Shown here: one piece after another, positions 2,704-13,030 of the stretch
Numbering within the stretch: the stretch's first letter is position 1
How the letters are laid out: every line of letters starts with the position of its first letter
Source: a virus
Length of the DNA: 35,613 nt
Reading direction: 5' to 3' (one strand)
Virus genome (UHGV): UHGV-0122175
Made by a program: the position numbers and the translations under genes
The notes under the pieces: generated by a model
What the model saw: only the letters and a program-made list of their open reading frames with translations
Told to the model about the DNA's origin: nothing
The model's database searches: none

Positions 2704-2838
2704 GAAAACCTCTAAACAATTTAATTAAACATAAGCCAGGACCTGAACCGGCCAGTCCAAGTCCTAGACACACAAAAAATACCACAAATCAATACAAGGT
2801 GACACGAGTACACCTTACCGAAGGTACAGAGTTTTAAT

Positions 2839-3189
2839 ATGAAACTACAGCGCAATTCTTCACAGCAGCGCTTCCGCAACGGTGCGGAACGCCATGCTAA
2901 CCGTTTCGCTACCAGTGCATCACGTAGCAACTCTCGCTACAGCCTGAGCGAAACACACGCAACGCCGGATGGCTACCCCGTAAAACAAATCGGCGAGCAT
3001 ACCTGGCTGATTGAGAAAGCCGGAATCGTGGTCCACAAATGCCCGCGAAATCCGTTTACCGAAAACCGCATTTTTGCGCTGAGCAGCGGAGACAATCAGT
3101 TCGGACAGGATTTCACATTGTACGAAGCACTACGCACGGTTGATCGCCTGCTGCGTGGACAGAGTTTTATTAAACAGGCTGATTTATAA
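2839..3189 (+). CDS. Hypothetical early-region protein
   Basis: 116-aa ORF, first gene of a co-directional early cluster. No family recognised. Confidence 0.55.
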   Translation: MKLQRNSSQQRFRNGAERHANRFATSASRSNSRYSLSETHATPDGYPVKQIGEHTWLIEKAGIVVHKCPRNPFTENRIFALSSGDNQFGQDFTLYEALRTVDRLLRGQSFIKQADL

Positions 3190-6116: not shown

Positions 6117-8939
6117 ATGACGGCAGAGTACATCAGGGACTGGCAGCAACCGCGCCACGCAGTGGGGCGTGAAGGAACGGGGATCCCCGCTCCTGAATCC
6201 GCGCTTTCCTCCTGGCTGGATGCCTACCGGGTAGAGAACGAACGCCGCCAGGAAATGGCTGATGCGGCGTTCTCCACCACGCCGCTGGGCAACCTGATTA
6301 ATAAAAGCCTGGACGCACAGGAAAAACAGGACAAAACCATCACACTGGCAGGAGACGCCAGAAAACAGGCACGCGGCGCGGTGGATGAAGCCATGGCCTC
6401 GCTGCGCCTGCTGCCGTCCTATCTACGCGATCCGCTTATTCGCCACCTCTCCTTCCTGCGCAAAAAACAGGAAGCCGATCGCCGGAAAGGCGAAAAGAGC
6501 TGGCAGGCGGAGCGCTATGCACGCGGAACCCTGCGCAAAATATTCGAACGTCTGGATCGCACTGACGGACGCTGGCTGACACCGGGGTATCGCTCCCTTG
6601 CCGGACGCGAACACCTGGACGATTTGCTGTACCTGCCGCAGCTCAACAAACACCAGATACAGACGCTGGCCACCATGACGGCGGCGATGTTCAGCAGCAC
6701 CTTCGAAAAACTCTGCGATGGCTTTGGCGCGACTGATGGCGAACTGACCATGGATGTAACGCTGAAGGCGTATCAGATGCTGGCCCGCATGGCGTTACAC
6801 CTGCACGCCATGCCTCCACATTATGACGCACTGACAACAGACAAAGACCGGAGGAACGAACCGGACACAGAGCTGCTGCCGGGCGCAATCCTTCGCCTGA
6901 CCTGTGCGGAATGGTGGAAACGCAAACTGTGGCTGTTACGTTGCGAGTGGAGAGAAGAACAACTCCGCGCCGCCTGTCTGGTTTCCAGAAAAACATCGCC
7001 CTATCTGAGCCAGGACGCGTTAAGCGAGTTTCGCGCACAGCGCGAGAAAACACGCGATTTCCTGAAAAGTTTCATGCTGGAAAATGAAGACGGGTTCACG
7101 ATTGATCTTGAGACAGTGTATTACGCGGGAGTAAGTAACCCGGTTCACCGTAAGGCAGAAATGATGGCCACCATGAAGGGGCTGGAACTTCTGGCCGAAG
7201 CCCGTGGCGACAAAGCGGTGTTTCTGACTGTCACCTGCCCGTCAAAATACCACGCCACAACAGAGAACGGTCATCCGAATCCCAAATGGAACGGGGCCAC
7301 CATGCGCGACTCCAGCGATTACCTGGTTAACACGTTTTTTGCGGCGGTCCGCAAGAAACTGAACCGCGACGGCCTGCGCTGGTATGGCATCCGCACGGTG
7401 GAGCCTCACCATGACGGCACCGTGCACTGGCATATGATGGTCTTTGCTCATCCGGAAGAAATCGACACCATTGTGTCCCACACCCGCGATATTGCCATTC
7501 AGGAAGATCGTCACGAGCTGGGCGATGATATTACTCCGCGCTTTAAGGCGGAGTATGTCGACGGCTCAAAAGGCACGCCAACCAGCTACATCGCCACCTA
7601 CATCGGAAAAAACCTGGACAGCCGCGCCGTGGATGGCATCGACCCGAAAACGGGCAAGCCACGCGTTGACCACGAAACCGGAAAATCAATGGCCGAGAGC
7701 GTGGAGCGCGCCATCGGCTGGGCGCGCCTTCACCGGGTCCGCCAGTTCCAGTTCTTTGGCATCCCCTCCCGTCAGGTGTGGCGTGAACTGCGCCGCCTTG
7801 CCAGCCAGATGGCACGCAACCCGGAAGGCCCGCAACGGCTGAAGGATGACGCAATGGATGCAGTGCTCGCTGCCGCTGATGCCGGGTGTTTTGCCTCCTA
7901 CATTGAAAAACAGGGCGGCGTACTTGTTCCACGCAAAGACTACCTGATTCGCACCGCCTACGACCTCGCAGATGAGCTGAACGATTACGGCGAACAGAGC
8001 GTACAGATTTACGGGATCTGGTCACCACTCATCGGGGAGTCTTCCCGTGTGTGCACACATCCGGATAACTGGAAGCTGGTAAGACGTAAACCGGAAGCGG
8101 AAGACAGCGCCCGCGAAAATGGTTTTGACCTTCAGGGCGGCCCTGCCGCCCCTTGGACTCGTGGCAATAACTGTCCCCGTGTACAGGAAACGGACAACAA
8201 CGGGACAGAACAGCCGGAAGAACGGCCAGCACCGTGGCCGCAGCTCCCTGACGGCGTTGAAGTGAACGAATGGATGCGCTCACTGAAACGGCACGAACGC
8301 CGGGCGCTGATGCGTTCGCTTCGTGACAAACAGGCAAAAAACAGCCGTGATGAAATGCAGAGCTGGACACAGAGCCGCAAACAGCAGCGGCCTTTGCCTG
8401 ATAACCACGAACTACTCGCTAAAGAATGGCGGGAGTCTGCTGAATCTCTCGGCCTGCATATCGGTGAACAGCAGATGCAGCACCTGTTACGGGGCGGCAG
8501 TCTGTACGTTGACGGCAGCAACATTGCACCGCAGGGATTTGAAATTGTACGCAAACCGGATACCCGACCGGACAGCCGGATCACGCAGCTCTGGCAGCGC
8601 CTGAGCCGTAACCACGGCGTAAGCAGTACGGAGATCCGCCATAACCCGGTCGCCAGCTATCTGGAACAGCTGGGGACATCAGACCCCGAAGCCGCCGCAC
8701 GCCTGGCATCCACACTTCAGCAAGACCAGAACACCATGAAAACACCCGTTACCGTGCTTTCTGACATGCTGCGCGCCATCCGCGACGCAGAGCACGCACA
8801 GAGAATCAGTGAAACCACTGAACGCGCCCGCCGCAAAGCAGACCTGCTGCGGGGTGGCCTGACCAGTGGAAACAAAAAACAGACAGAAACGGGATTCACA
8901 AATCCCGTAAATGAGCAAAAAACGCGCCGCGATATATGA
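6117..8939 (+). CDS. A: Replication initiation protein A (rolling-circle, HUH-type nickase)
   Basis: 940-aa ORF at the end of the early operon. Contains a His-hydrophobic-His motif (TVHWHMMVFAH) and a paired-tyrosine motif (YIATYIGKN) characteristic of phiX174/P2 A-type initiators. Confidence 0.85.
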   Translation: MTAEYIRDWQQPRHAVGREGTGIPAPESALSSWLDAYRVENERRQEMADAAFSTTPLGNLINKSLDAQEKQDKTITLAGDARKQARGAVDEAMASLRLLPSYLRDPLIRHLSFLRKKQEADRRKGEKSWQAERYARGTLRKIFERLDRTDGRWLTPGYRSLAGREHLDDLLYLPQLNKHQIQTLATMTAAMFSSTFEKLCDGFGATDGELTMDVTLKAYQMLARMALHLHAMPPHYDALTTDKDRRNEPDTELLPGAILRLTCAEWWKRKLWLLRCEWREEQLRAACLVSRKTSPYLSQDALSEFRAQREKTRDFLKSFMLENEDGFTIDLETVYYAGVSNPVHRKAEMMATMKGLELLAEARGDKAVFLTVTCPSKYHATTENGHPNPKWNGATMRDSSDYLVNTFFAAVRKKLNRDGLRWYGIRTVEPHHDGTVHWHMMVFAHPEEIDTIVSHTRDIAIQEDRHELGDDITPRFKAEYVDGSKGTPTSYIATYIGKNLDSRAVDGIDPKTGKPRVDHETGKSMAESVERAIGWARLHRVRQFQFFGIPSRQVWRELRRLASQMARNPEGPQRLKDDAMDAVLAAADAGCFASYIEKQGGVLVPRKDYLIRTAYDLADELNDYGEQSVQIYGIWSPLIGESSRVCTHPDNWKLVRRKPEAEDSARENGFDLQGGPAAPWTRGNNCPRVQETDNNGTEQPEERPAPWPQLPDGVEVNEWMRSLKRHERRALMRSLRDKQAKNSRDEMQSWTQSRKQQRPLPDNHELLAKEWRESAESLGLHIGEQQMQHLLRGGSLYVDGSNIAPQGFEIVRKPDTRPDSRITQLWQRLSRNHGVSSTEIRHNPVASYLEQLGTSDPEAAARLASTLQQDQNTMKTPVTVLSDMLRAIRDAEHAQRISETTERARRKADLLRGGLTSGNKKQTETGFTNPVNEQKTRRDI
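8889..8908. repeat. 20-bp palindrome ACGGGATT-n4-AATCCCGT (copy 1, inside the 3' end of A)
   Basis: Perfect 8-bp inverted arms, read directly from the sequence. Confidence 0.6.
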
Positions 8940-9015: not shown

Positions 9016-9975
9016 ATGAAAATTTGTATCGATGACGGCTCCACCAACATCAAGCTGGCATGGACTGAGAACGGCGAACGCCGCAACGCCATCAGCCCAA
9101 ACAGCTTCAAGTCGGAATGGTCTGCGCCGTTCGGTGGCACGCAGCCCGCGAACTACATGCTTGATGGCGTGCGCTATGGTTTTGATCCGGTCAGCGATCG
9201 CTTTGTCCAGACGACCGACACGCAATACCAGTACAGCGATGTGAATGTCATTGCCATTCATCACGCGCTGGTCAAATCAGGCATCACACCACAGGAAGTG
9301 GATGTGGTTGTCACCCTGCCACTGAGCGAATATTTCGACACAAACGCACAGCCGGACATGGCCAACATCAACCGCAAAAAAGCGAACGTTATGCGCCCGG
9401 TGGAGTACCAGAACGGCGAAGCATTCACTATCCGTAACGTGCGGGTTATGCCTGAATCCATTCCGGCTGGCTTTAAGGCACTGGCTGACATGAGTCCGTT
9501 TGAATCCCTGCTGATTGTGGATTTGGGCGGAACCACGCTGGATGTGGCAAAGGTTCAGGGGCAACTGGCAGGTATCAGCCAGGTGTTTTGCGATCCACAC
9601 GTAGGCGTTTCTCTGATGGCCGATGCCGTACTGTCGGTGATGGCCACTAACGGTATGCGCACCAGTCACCACATCGCCAATACCATTATCGAACATCGCC
9701 ATGATGAAGCCTGGTTGCGCCAGCACATCCACAATGACGCGCATTACGCCAGCCTGATGGCGGTTATTCGTGAAAAGGAAGAAACACTGAAACAACGAGT
9801 GATCCGCGCGCTGGCGGGGTTTTCGGGTTACGGGCGGGTGATGGTTGTCGGTGGCGGGGCGGAGATTGTGGCACCCGCTATCCGCGAAGCCTGCGGAGTT
9901 AATGCGACTTTCATCGCGGACGGGGTGCCACAGTTTGCTCTGGTTAATGGGCTGTACGCAATGGACAAGGAGTAA
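9016..9975 (+). CDS. parM: Actin-like segregation ATPase, ParM/StbA family
   Basis: 319 aa. N-terminus MKICIDDGSTNIKLAW closely matches the plasmid R1 ParM N-terminus as I recall it (MLVFIDDGSTNIKLQW). Also has the actin-fold phosphate motif IVDLGGTTLD and C-terminal VMVVGGGAE. Strong AAGGAA ribosome-binding site. Confidence 0.8.
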   Translation: MKICIDDGSTNIKLAWTENGERRNAISPNSFKSEWSAPFGGTQPANYMLDGVRYGFDPVSDRFVQTTDTQYQYSDVNVIAIHHALVKSGITPQEVDVVVTLPLSEYFDTNAQPDMANINRKKANVMRPVEYQNGEAFTIRNVRVMPESIPAGFKALADMSPFESLLIVDLGGTTLDVAKVQGQLAGISQVFCDPHVGVSLMADAVLSVMATNGMRTSHHIANTIIEHRHDEAWLRQHIHNDAHYASLMAVIREKEETLKQRVIRALAGFSGYGRVMVVGGGAEIVAPAIREACGVNATFIADGVPQFALVNGLYAMDKE

Positions 9976-9979
9976 ACCA

Positions 9980-10294
9980 ATGACGACTCCAACCAGACGG
10001 ATAAGTTTCTATCTGAAGCCAGCAGCCGTCAAGAGTGAACGAGAAGCGTGTAATTATCTCGACAGCCTGCCAGCCTCCGAACGCAGCCGCGCGCAACGCG
10101 CGGCATTTCTGGCTGGACTGGCGCTTATTAAAAGCGATCCCGCCTTTGCTTACTGGCTGGCTGAATGGCAGGAAGAGGAAGCAATACCACCAAGAAATAA
10201 CATCCGAAACAAGCATACTGGCACATCTGCAACAGAAAACAGTCACAGTAAGAGCCAGTTAAAAAGGAACATTCAGGAGTTTTTCCCAGAATAA
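9980..10294 (+). CDS. parR: ParR-like centromere-binding adaptor
   Basis: 105 aa from ATG 9980, with AAGGAG upstream, directly after parM. The segment YLDSLPASERSRAQRAAFLAGLAL resembles R1 ParR (LDSIPQGERSRLNRAALTAGLAL, from memory). Confidence 0.65.
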   Translation: MTTPTRRISFYLKPAAVKSEREACNYLDSLPASERSRAQRAAFLAGLALIKSDPAFAYWLAEWQEEEAIPPRNNIRNKHTGTSATENSHSKSQLKRNIQEFFPE

Positions 10295-10300
10295 CCTACA

Positions 10301-10325
10301 AACACCCTTCACGGGTGTTTTTTCA
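10301..10325 (+). terminator. Intrinsic terminator after the parMR-like operon
   Basis: AACACCC-ttcac-GGGTGTT stem followed by TTTTTT. Confidence 0.6.
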
Positions 10326-10339
10326 TGTTTACCCTAATA

Positions 10340-10381
10340 ATCGATCTGTTAAACAGATAGATATTGATTTATCTATCGATT
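10340..10381. promoter_or_regulatory. Operator-like cluster of palindromes upstream of the orphan genes
   Basis: ATCTGTT-A-AACAGAT and ATAGATA-n6-TATCTAT inverted repeats, bracketed by ATCGAT. A TTGACA -35-like hexamer follows at 10398..10403. Confidence 0.3.
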
Positions 10382-10470
10382 AAAACGATCAATACCCTTG
10401 ACAGTTGTATGGGATTTTGTAGGATCGATCACGATATGACCACTTTGTTTGTGTGTCATGCATAGGAAAA

Positions 10471-10498
10471 CGCCCCAATAGCGGTAACTATTGGGGCG
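10471..10498. other. Perfect 11-bp stem-loop
   Basis: CGCCCCAATAG-cggtaa-CTATTGGGGCG. On the minus strand it is followed by TTTTCC, which looks like a terminator. On the plus strand it would sit in the 5' UTR of the 10604 gene. Confidence 0.35.
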
Positions 10499-10603
10499 CC
10501 AAAGAAATCGAGGTGTCATCTACCTCTTGAGCTCGCCGGAATCGTATTTTCTGCGTGTGCCCATGTAAAGGTGAACACCTCATTTTATTGAGGTAAATCA
10601 AAT

Positions 10604-10882
10604 ATGGGTATAAAGATTTGTAAAAACTCCCACCGATACAACCCCCAATACTCACACCTTCCCGATAACCAGGGACAGACAGGCCGCCACCGCTGCGCTG
10701 CCTGCGCATACGAGCTTGGTGTACTTCACGCAATGATCGGTATTCCTAAAGCTAAAGATGATTCCTTCCTGGCAAATATTCCATATAGCCAGGCTGGCAC
10801 AGTCAGACATAAAGACGCCTTTGAGGCATACATGCTTGGGTACGACTATGCAATGAGCAGCGCACTGCTCAAAGCTGCATAA
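10604..10882 (+). CDS. Hypothetical protein (orphan gene 1 in the A-Q hotspot)
   Basis: 92 aa, GAGGT ribosome-binding site, lower GC than the backbone. Contains a Cys/His cluster (CKNSH...HRCAAC). No family recognised. Confidence 0.5.
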   Translation: MGIKICKNSHRYNPQYSHLPDNQGQTGRHRCAACAYELGVLHAMIGIPKAKDDSFLANIPYSQAGTVRHKDAFEAYMLGYDYAMSSALLKAA

Positions 10883-10948
10883 CGATTTCTGCTTTTTCAC
10901 CACCTCAACAATAGTTGGAGAGGTGGTTCTTCTGAAAAGGATAATCAA

Positions 10949-11236
10949 ATGACCGATATTAAAAGAAGCGATTTATTTTATGACGATTACAGTTGGACTG
11001 CTTTGCCAGGAGATGATCCCACGAAAACCGCTGCTGACCGCCATCGGTTTAGCCGCAAAGAGGGTTATGAAGTACTAAATATGCTTAATTCCTTTAAGGC
11101 ATACTCCCTGAAAGAGAAACTCATTGTCGAATGGATGATTCACGAACACTTACCATCAGGTATTCAGGGAAGGGAAAATGTTAAAGACTGGATTAAACAA
11201 AACTTCCTCAAATTCAAGTTAATTTATCCACGCTGA
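10949..11236 (+). CDS. Hypothetical protein (orphan gene 2 in the A-Q hotspot)
   Basis: 95 aa, AAAGGA ribosome-binding site, AT-rich. Separated from gene 1 by an 8-bp stem hairpin (10899..10927). No family recognised. Confidence 0.5.
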   Translation: MTDIKRSDLFYDDYSWTALPGDDPTKTAADRHRFSRKEGYEVLNMLNSFKAYSLKEKLIVEWMIHEHLPSGIQGRENVKDWIKQNFLKFKLIYPR

Positions 11237-11532
11237 CTGAATATCAGAGAATGAAACCCTGAACGGGCGCACAAACGAAACGAGCGTGCCATGCCCGACG
11301 CACATACAAAGGCGGAGATGCACTCTCCGCCTCATAGTGGTTAACGCATTTAGAAAACATCAAATTTGTCAAACAATCTTTCATATTAACCCCTCCAGAT
11401 TCAAACACACTCTGGGATTGTTGTTAGCTAGTCACTGGGATTTTGCGTTTATAGTTTCACCTCGCCCAATCCACTGAAATTTTTAGTCAACTCAAGCTAA
11501 CGCGCGTGTTAAATATATGCTCATTTTCAAAC

Positions 11533-11560
11533 TGCACAATAGTGCACAAATTTGCACAAT
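11533..11560. repeat. Three phased direct repeats of TGCACAA
   Basis: Copies at 11533, 11543 and 11554, about one helical turn apart, in the non-coding region beside the portal gene where cos is expected. Confidence 0.5.
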
Positions 11561-11934
11561 TTTTTTGAACGACTTTTTGCCCTTCCGGCCCGCATGGCGG
11601 CTGGATCCGTCAGGGATCCGTGCGTGCACAAAAAAACGCGCTTTTTCTGCGCGCAGGTGACGGGGGAACAGCCCGCGTTTCAGGGGGTAAATAGCATTCC
11701 CTGAACGATGTCGCAGAGATACAACAGAATGGCTGTCTTTCTCACGCTGAGCGTGAAAAAGACGTGAGGGCTTTTGATTTGATGGGGTGGCAGATAAGGC
11801 CGTCAAAATCGCACTGAGGCGGCGAGAACATGCAGTCAGCGCGATGGGATTGCGTAAGAGCCTGACCGCCGATGATGGCAATAAGCTGGAAGGCGTCGTG
11901 AAATTATCTGATTGATACAGGAGCTGGAGAGTCG

Positions 11935-11983: not shown

Positions 11984-13030
11984 TCAGGATGTGGGCGGGG
12001 TGTCCAGCAGTGCGTAAGGGTTAAAGCGGATCACCTCTTCGCCAAGCCAGTCATTGATGTGCTTCATGGCCTCCATAACGGGCATCAGTTCGTTAATTGC
12101 GTAAACCCGCGCGGCCTTCTCCACATCACCAAACGCACTTTTTTCACCCGGCATCGCCCCCATCAGTTGCGGCGGAACGCGGTGCGCAGCCAGCACATCA
12201 TCACGGGATGCCACCTTAACATTCATGAACTCATCTTTTGCGGTGATCTGCTGGAACGGCAAAATTTGCACCCCCTCTTTGCCCCCATTGGGCGCATGAA
12301 TGAGCACGTTTTTAAATGCACCACCACCACGTGCACCCTGTAGCGTTTCCTTCAGGGAGTCCATGCTTTCGCGGTTTACCTGCGCTGCACCGATGTAGAT
12401 GATGCACCCGGCGTGGGATCCATTGTCGTAGTACAGTTTTCTGAACATGTCCGCCGAATGAGACAGGCTGGCCGAGAGTAATGCGCCGAGATATTCCGGC
12501 ATGCCGTAGATTTCCTGGTTAATGTCAGGATTCATCAGGTGGCACACTTTGCCAGGGCGAAACTGAAACGCATCCTTACCATCCTGCACATACCACCATG
12601 ATTCAAGATCGCTTCCGCGTCGCATGTATTTCGCCAGGGCGTGCCGTAATTTAAGCGGTTCGCCGAGCATATTGCTCCGAAGCTCAAGGAATGCGTTACC
12701 GAACACAAACCAGTCCAGCGCCAGCGCCGAGAAATCCTGCCGGGAAAGCAGCGGGTGCGGGATGTAGCAACCGAGCAATACATTACGCTTAAAGTAAAGC
12801 GCAGACTGATGCCAGGACGTTTGCCGGGCAGCTCTTGCCAGACCGTACCAGTCCACCGGGGTTTCATACCACCGCCCGTTATCAGCACAGTACATATTGT
12901 CCAGCAAATCATGCCCGGTCAGGCGATAAGGACCATCAAATGTGAATGCACTGAGCGACGATTCTTTCCTGAGCGCATCAGCGAGATCAATGCGTGAACT
13001 CATGCGCACTTTTTTATTTTTTCTGCTCAT
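11984..13030 (-). CDS. Q: Portal protein (P2 Q-like)
   Basis: 348 aa, close to P2 Q in size. Divergent from the O-N-M-L operon and adjacent to the large terminase, as in P2. Confidence 0.9.
   Translation of the reverse strand: MSRKNKKVRMSSRIDLADALRKESSLSAFTFDGPYRLTGHDLLDNMYCADNGRWYETPVDWYGLARAARQTSWHQSALYFKRNVLLGCYIPHPLLSRQDFSALALDWFVFGNAFLELRSNMLGEPLKLRHALAKYMRRGSDLESWWYVQDGKDAFQFRPGKVCHLMNPDINQEIYGMPEYLGALLSASLSHSADMFRKLYYDNGSHAGCIIYIGAAQVNRESMDSLKETLQGARGGGAFKNVLIHAPNGGKEGVQILPFQQITAKDEFMNVKVASRDDVLAAHRVPPQLMGAMPGEKSAFGDVEKAARVYAINELMPVMEAMKHINDWLGEEVIRFNPYALLDTPPTS

Follow-up and report, generated by a model that had tools for sequence, protein, structure and literature searches.

A P2-like prophage with two independent accessory genes in its gpA-gpQ hotspot, one of them in a mobile cassette with a predicted antisense RNA

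The DNA analysed here, virus genome UHGV-0122175 (35,613 nucleotides (nt), called the window below), is a P2-like prophage. Four genes lie between its replication endonuclease gene A (6117-8939) and its portal gene (11984-13030, minus strand), namely parM, a parR-like gene and two small open reading frames, ORF1 and ORF2, which are the subject of this report. Their coordinates, and those of the signals around them, are collected in Table 1. The gpA-gpQ slot is a published P2 hotspot, in which about a quarter of P2-like phages have a partition system and which frequently houses short defence systems (PMC9122126). An initial annotation of the window had described the two co-directional genes after the parMR terminator as lower in GC than the backbone, each with its own ribosome-binding site (RBS), separated by a hairpin and situated in this hotspot. 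All of this was confirmed; GC content is 0.40-0.47 over positions 10100-11600 (0.42-0.47 over 10250-11450), versus 0.52-0.60 in the phage backbone on either side. Purifying selection is strong on both genes, with ratios of non-synonymous to synonymous divergence (dN/dS) of 0.02-0.09 for ORF1 and 0.06-0.11 for ORF2, which indicates that both are real genes. Neither product had been recognised, and indeed neither matched Pfam, NCBIfam or PADLOC; only PHROGs families annotated as of unknown function were hit (phrog_3941, 1e-38, by ORF1, and phrog_33929, 9e-43, by ORF2). Both are uncharacterised accessory genes. The term orphan, also used in that annotation, does not hold for ORF1, whose domain is widespread in restriction-modification (R-M) operons and nuclease fusions. 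Window-type DNA is rare, being present in 7 of 5426 complete E. coli genomes, and megablast with the locus found nothing similar among 50,697 phage records.

Table 1. Positions in the window of the genes and signals of the ORF1-ORF2 locus.
Feature	Position	Strand	Description
parM	9016-9975	+	ParM, Pfam PF06406/PF21523, E 1e-82
parR-like gene	9980-10294	+	Plasmid_stab_B protein, Pfam E 4e-26
Intrinsic terminator of the parM-parR operon	10300-10320	+	8-bp stem, then TTTCATGTTT; directly after the parR-like stop at 10294
ATCGAT-rich inverted repeat	10340-10393		24-nt arms, 75% complementary; after the parR terminator, just ahead of the ORF1 promoter
ORF1 promoter, sigma-70-like	10398-10425	+	TTGACA-16-TAGGAT, 10/12 consensus positions; GATC at 10387, 10423 and 10427
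ORF1 mRNA 5' leader, predicted	10432-10603	+	172 nt, from promoter position
Cis-antisense RNA, predicted	10464-10534	-	~70 nt, two hairpins; ends in GC hairpin 10471-10498, then UUUUCC
Antisense RNA promoter, predicted	10541-10569	-	TTTACA-17-TACGAT
Hairpin sequestering the Shine-Dalgarno (SD) sequence, predicted	10577-10594	+	ACCUCA/UGAGGU
ORF1	10604-10882	+	92 amino acids (aa); SD GAGG 10590-10593
ORF1 cassette terminator hairpin	10899-10927	+	13-nt arms, weak T run, T-rich tail
ORF2	10949-11236	+	95 aa; SD AAGGA ~10936-10940

The initial annotation had further proposed that ORF1 and ORF2 form a compact two-gene defence or toxin-antitoxin pair, and had called for a survey of other P2-like prophages for the same pair. 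The pair was found to be limited to one narrow E. coli lineage. Among the fetched loci, ORF1 was present alone in 78 and ORF2 alone in 8, and the 12 entries with both genes all belonged to that lineage. Comparison of the window with locus L002 gave a synonymous divergence (dS) of 0.17 for ORF1 and of 1.59 for ORF2, a ten-fold difference within the same two genomes, and identity between the two falls off from about position 11005 onward. Across the two-gene lineage, ORF1 copies are 93-100% identical and ORF2 copies 68-100%. Taken together, the gap in dS and the gap in identity indicate that ORF2 alleles have been exchanged independently of ORF1. The hairpin between the two genes covaries with that of a diverged relative, L015 (CACCACCTC/GAGGTGGT versus CAACATCTC/GAGATGTT), and three loci with ORF1 only (L003, L004 and L005) have a strong terminator at the matching position. 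Judged by these features, the hairpin is the ORF1 terminator; it is probably leaky owing to its weak T run, and ORF2 is probably transcribed here by read-through. We conclude that two separate morons stand one after the other in the hotspot. The proposal of a two-gene defence or type II toxin-antitoxin pair, which found no support in the solo occurrence of each gene, the dS values or the terminator between them, was dropped.

ORF1 belongs to a cassette of about 600 bp that has its own signals. The upstream regions of 80 viral loci with ORF1 relatives were fetched and fell into 21 sequence groups, 17 of which, all of enterobacterial type, have one architecture despite widely different sequences. 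A promoter equivalent to that of the window (TTGAnn-16/18-TAnnnT) is found in most leader groups, its -35 box preceded by a GATC at a distance of about 10 nt, and across the 17 groups the leader is 153-202 nt long, with its elements in constant order. The GC-rich hairpin in the leader has a wholly different stem from one group to another (CGCCCCAATAG/CTATTGGGGCG in the window, at 10471-10498; GGCCCAGAAGG, CCCCTAAGTAG or GGCCCGATAT in others), and three leader sub-types could be aligned in this terminal hairpin only. Exact probes for the three sub-types matched 70 viral contigs, and an ORF1 relative came next in 69 of them. In the exception, L109 (2330-3285), the promoter, leader, antisense promoter and hairpins of a P22-like ORF1 cassette drive a Bro-N gene (PF02498, E 6e-25) that directly follows a gene for a LexA-like cI repressor, and the breakpoint of this cargo swap lies at the SD-sequestering hairpin.

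The cassette occupies at least four kinds of slot. In P2-like phages it follows ParMR (L004 and 36 IMG/VR loci); in P22-like phages it lies downstream of the cI/c2 repressor (L005, L032, L035); elsewhere it separates Q from the lysis genes (L003, L020, L080), or stands at the tail-fibre/gtrABC/umuDC end (L024, L027, L037). Tblastn of ORF1 against the phage records likewise gave a stand-alone homologue in the equivalent post-ParMR slot of Escherichia phage 520873, one directly downstream of the c2/cI repressor of the P22-like Salmonella phage BIS08P22, and one between Q and the lysis genes of Providencia phage PSTCR7lys. A 163-bp promoter and hairpin stretch of the 520873-type cassette matched 166 further genomes, which makes 173 of the 5426 complete E. 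coli genomes (~3%) in all. With its own promoter (10398-10425) and terminator hairpin (10899-10927), an atypical GC content, conserved phage genes on both sides and different positions in unrelated phage genomes, the ORF1 unit (~10398-10935) is an autonomous mobile moron cassette, a label that describes genome organisation and not function. In some RefSeq genomes an intact ORF1, 99% identical to that of the window, is left unannotated, as in L002 (6281-6559) and in H16 (NZ_CP128926.1). Surveys of the hotspot based on annotation therefore undercount ORF1.

GATC sites are about four-fold enriched in the leaders, with 63 observed versus 15.3 expected over the 17 groups and at conserved offsets, a figure that is no more than indicative, the groups being related by descent. 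They adjoin the -35 box and cover the -10 box of the mRNA promoter; most other groups have them in the antisense promoter too, in its spacer and its start region. Such a placement suggests methylation-dependent control, by analogy with IS10 or Mu mom.

Within the leader, signals for an RNA on the opposite strand were found in every one of the 17 groups. A minus-strand TTTACA is invariant, stands 17 nt from a TAnnnT box and lies 34-47 nt from the ORF1 start, while the spacer sequences vary. The region from this putative promoter to the GC hairpin folds in all groups as a two-hairpin RNA of ~70-100 nt. In an alignment of 18 sequences, 86% of the cells of the terminal hairpin are paired, versus 64% in shuffles, compensatory changes occur at 8 of its 10 pairs, and its covariation score is 0.67, versus 0.27 in shuffles and at most 0.25 when the partner is slid. 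The flank 3' of the GC hairpin is rich in pyrimidines and T on the minus strand, whereas both plus-strand flanks are A-rich. Rfam gave only sub-threshold hairpin matches in the window, to NsiR1 (29.6 bits) and to sar (23.5 bits, gathering score 43), and at gathering score nothing covering the leader element in 10 related loci. Near the ORF1 cassette of L080, a lambdoid prophage fragment, a match to sRNA-Xcc1 above the gathering score was observed (59.9 bits, 2804-2893, minus strand). The partner of ORF1, if it has any, would be this predicted antisense RNA in its own leader, which the initial annotation had overlooked.

The ORF1 translation start appears to be locked in RNA structure. The 37-nt stretch containing the predicted SD hairpin of the window folds with -8.9 kcal/mol (z -3.0), and a hairpin at the matching position was found in 16 of the 17 groups, with z values of -2 to -4.7 and stems that vary by group (CACCUUA/UAAGGUG, CCUGU/ACAGG, CCCUG/CAGGG, CUUUCU/AGAAGG). 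Four distant homologues that do not have the leader do not have the hairpin either. In the fold of the full leader the start codon is paired as well (GCCCAU, 10560-10565, with AUGGGU, 10604-10609), and the same is seen in several groups. A structured RBS that keeps the mRNA translationally inert, as in type I toxin-antitoxin systems, is predicted in 16 of 17 groups. A three-element antisense switch, with the inverted repeat 10502-10516/10575-10589 acting as an anti-anti-SD element, was considered and dropped, as the SD hairpin of the window persists either way; a switch of this type was seen in Providencia/Proteus-type leaders only.

The initial annotation had pointed to a Cys/His cluster in the first protein, and this stands as a conserved candidate metal site, C6-x3-H10 ... 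H29-x-C31-x2-C34, whose five ligands are all invariant in 11 homologues. ORF1 contains an internal duplication, with two repeats of the form LPxSQ(G/A)Gxx-RHK....AYxxG. It is polar, rich in Cys and His and predicted to be helical, with no hydrophobic segment. In its AlphaFold2 model (pLDDT 79.8), C31-x2-C34 opens helix 32-45, which places the CxxC at a helix N-terminus. The model suggests a small zinc-binding module, combining a treble-clef-like C-x3-H knuckle with the helix-N-terminal CxxC. Neither Pfam nor NCBIfam gave a helix-turn-helix match, even with E values up to 1 allowed, and no sequence-profile or structure relative was found in the PDB. A literature search by accession number and peptide motif returned nothing relevant.

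A word-indexed search gave 7 relatives of ORF1, and an exhaustive profile search of a library clustered at 50% gave 502, mostly stand-alone proteins of 80-100 aa. The domain also occurs in fusions, with a WYL protein (P0071), with DGQHR/DndB/DpdB-like proteins (P0072, P0090, P0094) and, at the N-terminal side, with an HNH restriction-enzyme-like nuclease (P0115). Two further proteins, P0130 and P0133, combine two half-repeats of the domain with a NOV_C/DUF3883 nuclease and match the PADLOC candidate PDC-S36, for which no published validation was found in the literature. As side observations, P0049 (182 aa) is a tandem duplication of the whole domain, and P0105 (890 aa) and P0119 (282 aa) are full-length fusions with no recognisable second domain.

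When the scan was restricted to one genome per species, relatives were found in Proteobacteria, Bacteroidota, Clostridia, Treponema, Campylobacter, Dehalococcoidia, Actinobacteria and Myxococcota. Neighbours within 1.5 kb were clustered for 80 such loci. A D12-class or N6_N4 adenine methyltransferase was present in 45 of them, a DpnII (PF04556), PDDEXK_11 or DUF6996/6997/7226 protein in 41, both in 36, and at least one of the two in 50. These counts place the family, as an accessory component, in type II R-M systems that have adenine methyltransferases. No R-M gene lies near the window copy, and the phage copies are, as judged from these relatives, orphans of an R-M-associated family. A 426-aa protein with DUF6996, DUF6997 and DUF7226 (L231, 197-1477, and 11 similar loci) recurs beside a D12 methyltransferase and an ORF1-family gene, and probably represents an uncharacterised family of restriction endonucleases. 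Recognition of GATC operators by the ORF1 protein itself was also considered, and dropped: GATC is enriched in the phage leaders and not upstream of the homologues embedded in R-M operons, so that the leader sites more likely reflect Dam control of the promoters.

ORF2 belongs to another family, of at least 1001 proteins, nearly all of ~100 aa and from beta- and gammaproteobacteria (Pectobacterium, Pseudomonas, Janthinobacterium, Roseateles and others), with the conserved core DYSW..GDDP.K...D..RFSRKEGYEV ... EWMIHE.LP...QGR. Its AlphaFold2 model (pLDDT 86.4) has a three-helix C-terminal part. Comparison with PDB sequence profiles stayed at chance level (best E 0.08), the fold had no match in the PDB or BFVD, with no Foldseek hit to viral structures below E = 1, and tblastn against the phage records gave no match. 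Homologues were found in the P2-like hotspot of a Pectobacterium prophage (with no ORF1), at the edge of a Pseudomonas prophage, immediately behind the integrase gene in a Pseudomonas island beside a type I R-M system, beside DUF6361 genes and in the cargo of a Tn7-like element. On a Cupriavidus plasmid (L099, 895-10303), the homologue lies between a Gabija-like pair (AAA/OLD-TOPRIM and UvrD helicase) and a Lactamase_B gene, which is followed by a gene for a 1938-aa trypsin/AAA_16 protein, a neighbourhood resembling a defence island. In Variovorax (L260-L262, 4529-5303) it is directly downstream of a 119-aa Beta_protein fragment (PF14350, the beta protein of satellite phage P4). A relationship to P4 gop-beta-cII was considered on the basis of this neighbour and dropped, there being no sequence link to phage records. 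No recurrent partner emerged from the neighbourhoods examined. These contexts mark ORF2 as an accessory gene that belongs to mobile elements and defence islands, independent of ORF1 and unrelated to it. It may act in defence, in counter-defence or as a regulator.

Other elements were noted around the two genes. The ATCGAT-rich repeat ahead of the ORF1 promoter is conserved in the P2-like loci L004 and L015, but P22-like and lambdoid cassettes lack it. It may belong to parMR and not to the ORF1 unit, as a ParR centromere (parC) sited downstream of that operon, or it may be an operator. Beyond ORF2, the 260-bp spacer that separates it from the cos-proximal region contains a minus-strand ORF of 46 codons (11244-11384) with a strong GGAGG RBS, and this spacer is present in just 2 of the 5426 E. 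coli genomes. The sole tblastn match of the 46-codon peptide was weak and partial (E 2e-4, Citrobacter phage Shae_phiSM), and a perfect 9-bp hairpin (11310-11332) lies inside its ORF. Left of the portal gene, a block of TGCACAA repeats and GC-rich palindromes is common to the window (11500-11700) and phage 520873 (L004, 4290-4480); it is presumably the cos-proximal region bordering the hotspot.

The reading that we favour, tentatively, is that ORF1 is an orphan DNA-recognition or controller-like zinc module under RNA control of the type I toxin-antitoxin kind. Occurrence in R-M operons and in nuclease fusions is typical of DNA-recognition and controller modules, and ORF1 is read as one on this ground. 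The sigma-70-like promoter, flanked by Dam (GATC) sites, would produce an mRNA with a 172-nt leader, and the opposite-strand promoter inside this leader would produce the antisense RNA, fully complementary to leader positions ~+33 to +103. With the ORF1 SD and start codon locked in a hairpin, translation would depend on ribosomes loading further upstream; the antisense RNA would block this upstream landing (standby) region, or else the duplex would become a substrate for RNase III. Standby occlusion and RNase III cleavage are both established mechanisms of type I toxin-antitoxin systems, tisB/istR-1 among them. From the locked start and the antisense RNA together, the ORF1 product is expected at a very low level, and control as tight as this suggests that an excess of the protein would be harmful. 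Temperate phages would have captured such an orphan gene, and the lysogen would use it against incoming DNA, by exclusion, by an abortive response or by interference with incoming restriction systems. A role in conflict (defence, exclusion or toxin) is the most plausible functional class for ORF1. We also considered a more specific version, which is doubtful as a whole. The ORF1 family would be an unrecognised class of zinc-finger, non-helix-turn-helix DNA-recognition or controller proteins of adenine-methylation R-M systems, serving also as targeting domain of HNH and NOV_C nucleases. The phage copy, under a Dam-sensitive switch made of antisense RNA and locked RBS, would be released on infection or DNA entry, and would exclude phages or R-M elements, or abort the cell.

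Several points weigh against the favoured reading. The analysis shows the anatomy, conservation and mobility of the cassette, the constraint on its protein, the independence of the two genes and the links of the family to R-M systems and nucleases. The antisense RNA is predicted from sequence signals alone; that it is made and represses ORF1, that the protein binds DNA and zinc, and that there is any phenotype, we infer. Its U-tract is short (UUUUCC in the window), and weaker still in the Providencia/Proteus-type group. The minimum-energy fold of the window keeps the SD hairpin with or without the region covered by the antisense RNA, which does not suggest a simple switch. As for the protein, with 92 aa, a composition that is not hydrophobic and no membrane helix, it is unlike a classical type I toxin, and PADLOC has no model for ORF1 or for ORF2. 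The Bro-N cargo of L109 shows that the leader marks a tightly controlled gene, and not a toxin in particular. Finally, GATC is not enriched upstream of the homologues embedded in R-M operons (18 observed versus 24.5 expected).

ORF1 could instead be a small antirepressor or prophage-switch regulator, silenced in the lysogen by the antisense RNA as sar silences ant in P22, with the repressor of its own or of a competing prophage as target. L109 speaks in favour of this, since there an identical leader downstream of cI drives a gene of a family commonly annotated as antirepressor. Several copies of the cassette adjoin immunity genes, and in phage 186 the antirepressor Tum is encoded in the corresponding genome region. 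The weak, sub-threshold Rfam match to sar over the hairpin can be added, but it is a match to just a hairpin. Moreover, the cassette is found in phages with unrelated repressors (P2 C-type, P22 c2-type, lambdoid), and the non-phage relatives of ORF1, mostly in R-M operons or fused to nucleases, are a poor fit for repressor binding, so that we regard an antirepressor as improbable. The same distribution in R-M operons and nuclease fusions, PDC-S36 included, would suit a counter-defence protein, that is, a free recognition module that protects the phage genome by occupying the DNA targets of HNH/NOV_C nucleases and R-M systems, or by mis-regulating their genes. Stand-alone copies of defence domains acting as decoys are a known phage strategy. 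The promoter, however, is of a constitutive type, the slots are those expressed in the prophage (after cI, the P2 hotspot) and not early lytic operons, and tight translational silencing is ill-suited to fast, stoichiometric action on infection. We see little chance that ORF1 acts in this way.

Two simpler accounts concern the RNA and the pairing of the genes. The antisense promoter and hairpins might be conserved for reasons other than regulation, as mRNA stability elements or protein-binding sites, with ORF1 being an accessory gene that is weakly translated. The GC hairpin would indeed form in the mRNA leader too, and the minus-strand U-tract is short in several groups. An account of this kind leaves aside that both hexamers are promoter-like and keep their exact spacing across the 17 groups while the spacer changes, that the T/C-rich flank 3' of the hairpin is found on the minus strand, both plus-strand flanks being A-rich, and that a second hairpin always stands between antisense promoter and terminator; it is quite unlikely. 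As to a single two-protein system made of ORF1 and ORF2, be it a type II toxin-antitoxin pair or a defence system with two components, the genes are adjacent and co-directional, with a constant spacing of 66-69 nt in every two-gene locus of the lineage. The weak T run of the intergenic terminator makes co-transcription likely, and short defence systems are often carried by this hotspot (PMC9122126). Against it stand the loci with ORF1 and no ORF2, the ten-fold gap in synonymous divergence within the same genomes, and the ORF2 relatives, which occur solo in unrelated contexts and never adjoin an ORF1 relative outside the window lineage. ORF1, in addition, has its own promoter, predicted antisense RNA and terminator. 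A joint system is very improbable.

If the favoured reading is true, an unnamed family present in many bacterial phyla, for which Pfam, NCBIfam and PADLOC have no model, would gain a context in R-M operons and defence nucleases. This would point to a second class of accessory or controller proteins in R-M systems, with a zinc finger where the C proteins have a helix-turn-helix. The Dam-site promoter, the 70-nt antisense RNA and the locked start would make up a new unit of antisense-RNA control, absent from Rfam, that moves together with its cargo from one classical moron slot to another in P2-, P22- and lambda-like phages. Small genes that are neighbours in the gpA-gpQ hotspot do not necessarily form one system, which matters for defence screens based on cloning.

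Compared with the morons of temperate phages, such as lambda rexAB, bor and lom, the ORF1 cassette has the same properties, namely its own promoter and terminator, a low GC content and multiple slots, and no difference in kind. The defence candidate PDC-S36 is matched by P0130 (E 3e-42) and P0133 (E 7e-50), in each of which the N-terminal half of the ORF1 domain (LPxSQAGxxRHKCxxCAY) is present twice; ORF1 differs in that it ends at residue 92, has no NOV_C/DUF3883 nuclease domain and does not match the PDC-S36 model. The controller (C) proteins of R-M systems occur stand-alone in R-M operons and also fused to restriction enzymes; orphan or pre-expressed C proteins keep cognate R-M systems from becoming established and can be lethal, and antisense RNAs and promoter methylation are further means of R-M regulation (PMC12707154). 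C proteins are 80-100 aa long, and the ORF1 family resembles them in occurring both as separate genes of R-M operons and in nuclease fusions. They are, however, Xre-type helix-turn-helix dimers that bind palindromic C-boxes in their own promoter and sit within R-M operons, whereas ORF1 has a Cys/His zinc motif and no helix-turn-helix match, no C-box-like operator was identified for it, and the window copy has no R-M genes nearby. For lack of a helix-turn-helix ORF1 is not placed in the C-protein family, and the comparison concerns how it may work, not its classification.

On the RNA side, the immI region of P22 offers a gene, ant, that is silent in the lysogen, with an antisense RNA of ~70 nt, sar, that starts in its leader and ends in a GC hairpin, as predicted for ORF1. 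Sar overlaps the RBS of ant, whereas the overlap in the ORF1 leader lies upstream of the RBS; there is no significant similarity between sar and the ORF1 element in sequence or by covariance model, and ORF1 is unrelated to Ant. The type I systems tisB/istR-1, zorO/orzO and dinQ/agrB, and the non-membrane examples symE/symR and ralR/ralA, share with the ORF1 cassette a small protein, a long structured leader, a sequestered SD and location on a mobile element. In the first three the antitoxin RNA targets the 5' untranslated region far upstream of a structured RBS, and the ORF1 cassette is likewise predicted to have a two-stem-loop RNA on the opposite strand, complementary to the region ~70-140 nt upstream of the ORF1 start. 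This RNA would overlap fully, in cis, unlike IstR-1 and OrzO, and no sequence or Rfam relationship links the cassette to known type I systems. Type I toxins are usually hydrophobic membrane peptides of fewer than 60 aa, whereas ORF1 is a soluble, zinc-finger-like protein of 92 aa, to which only the rare soluble toxins SymE and RalR are comparable. The ORF1 cassette would be best described as an antisense-controlled moron, or type I toxin-antitoxin-like unit, with an unusual cargo and a control unit that appears to be undescribed so far.

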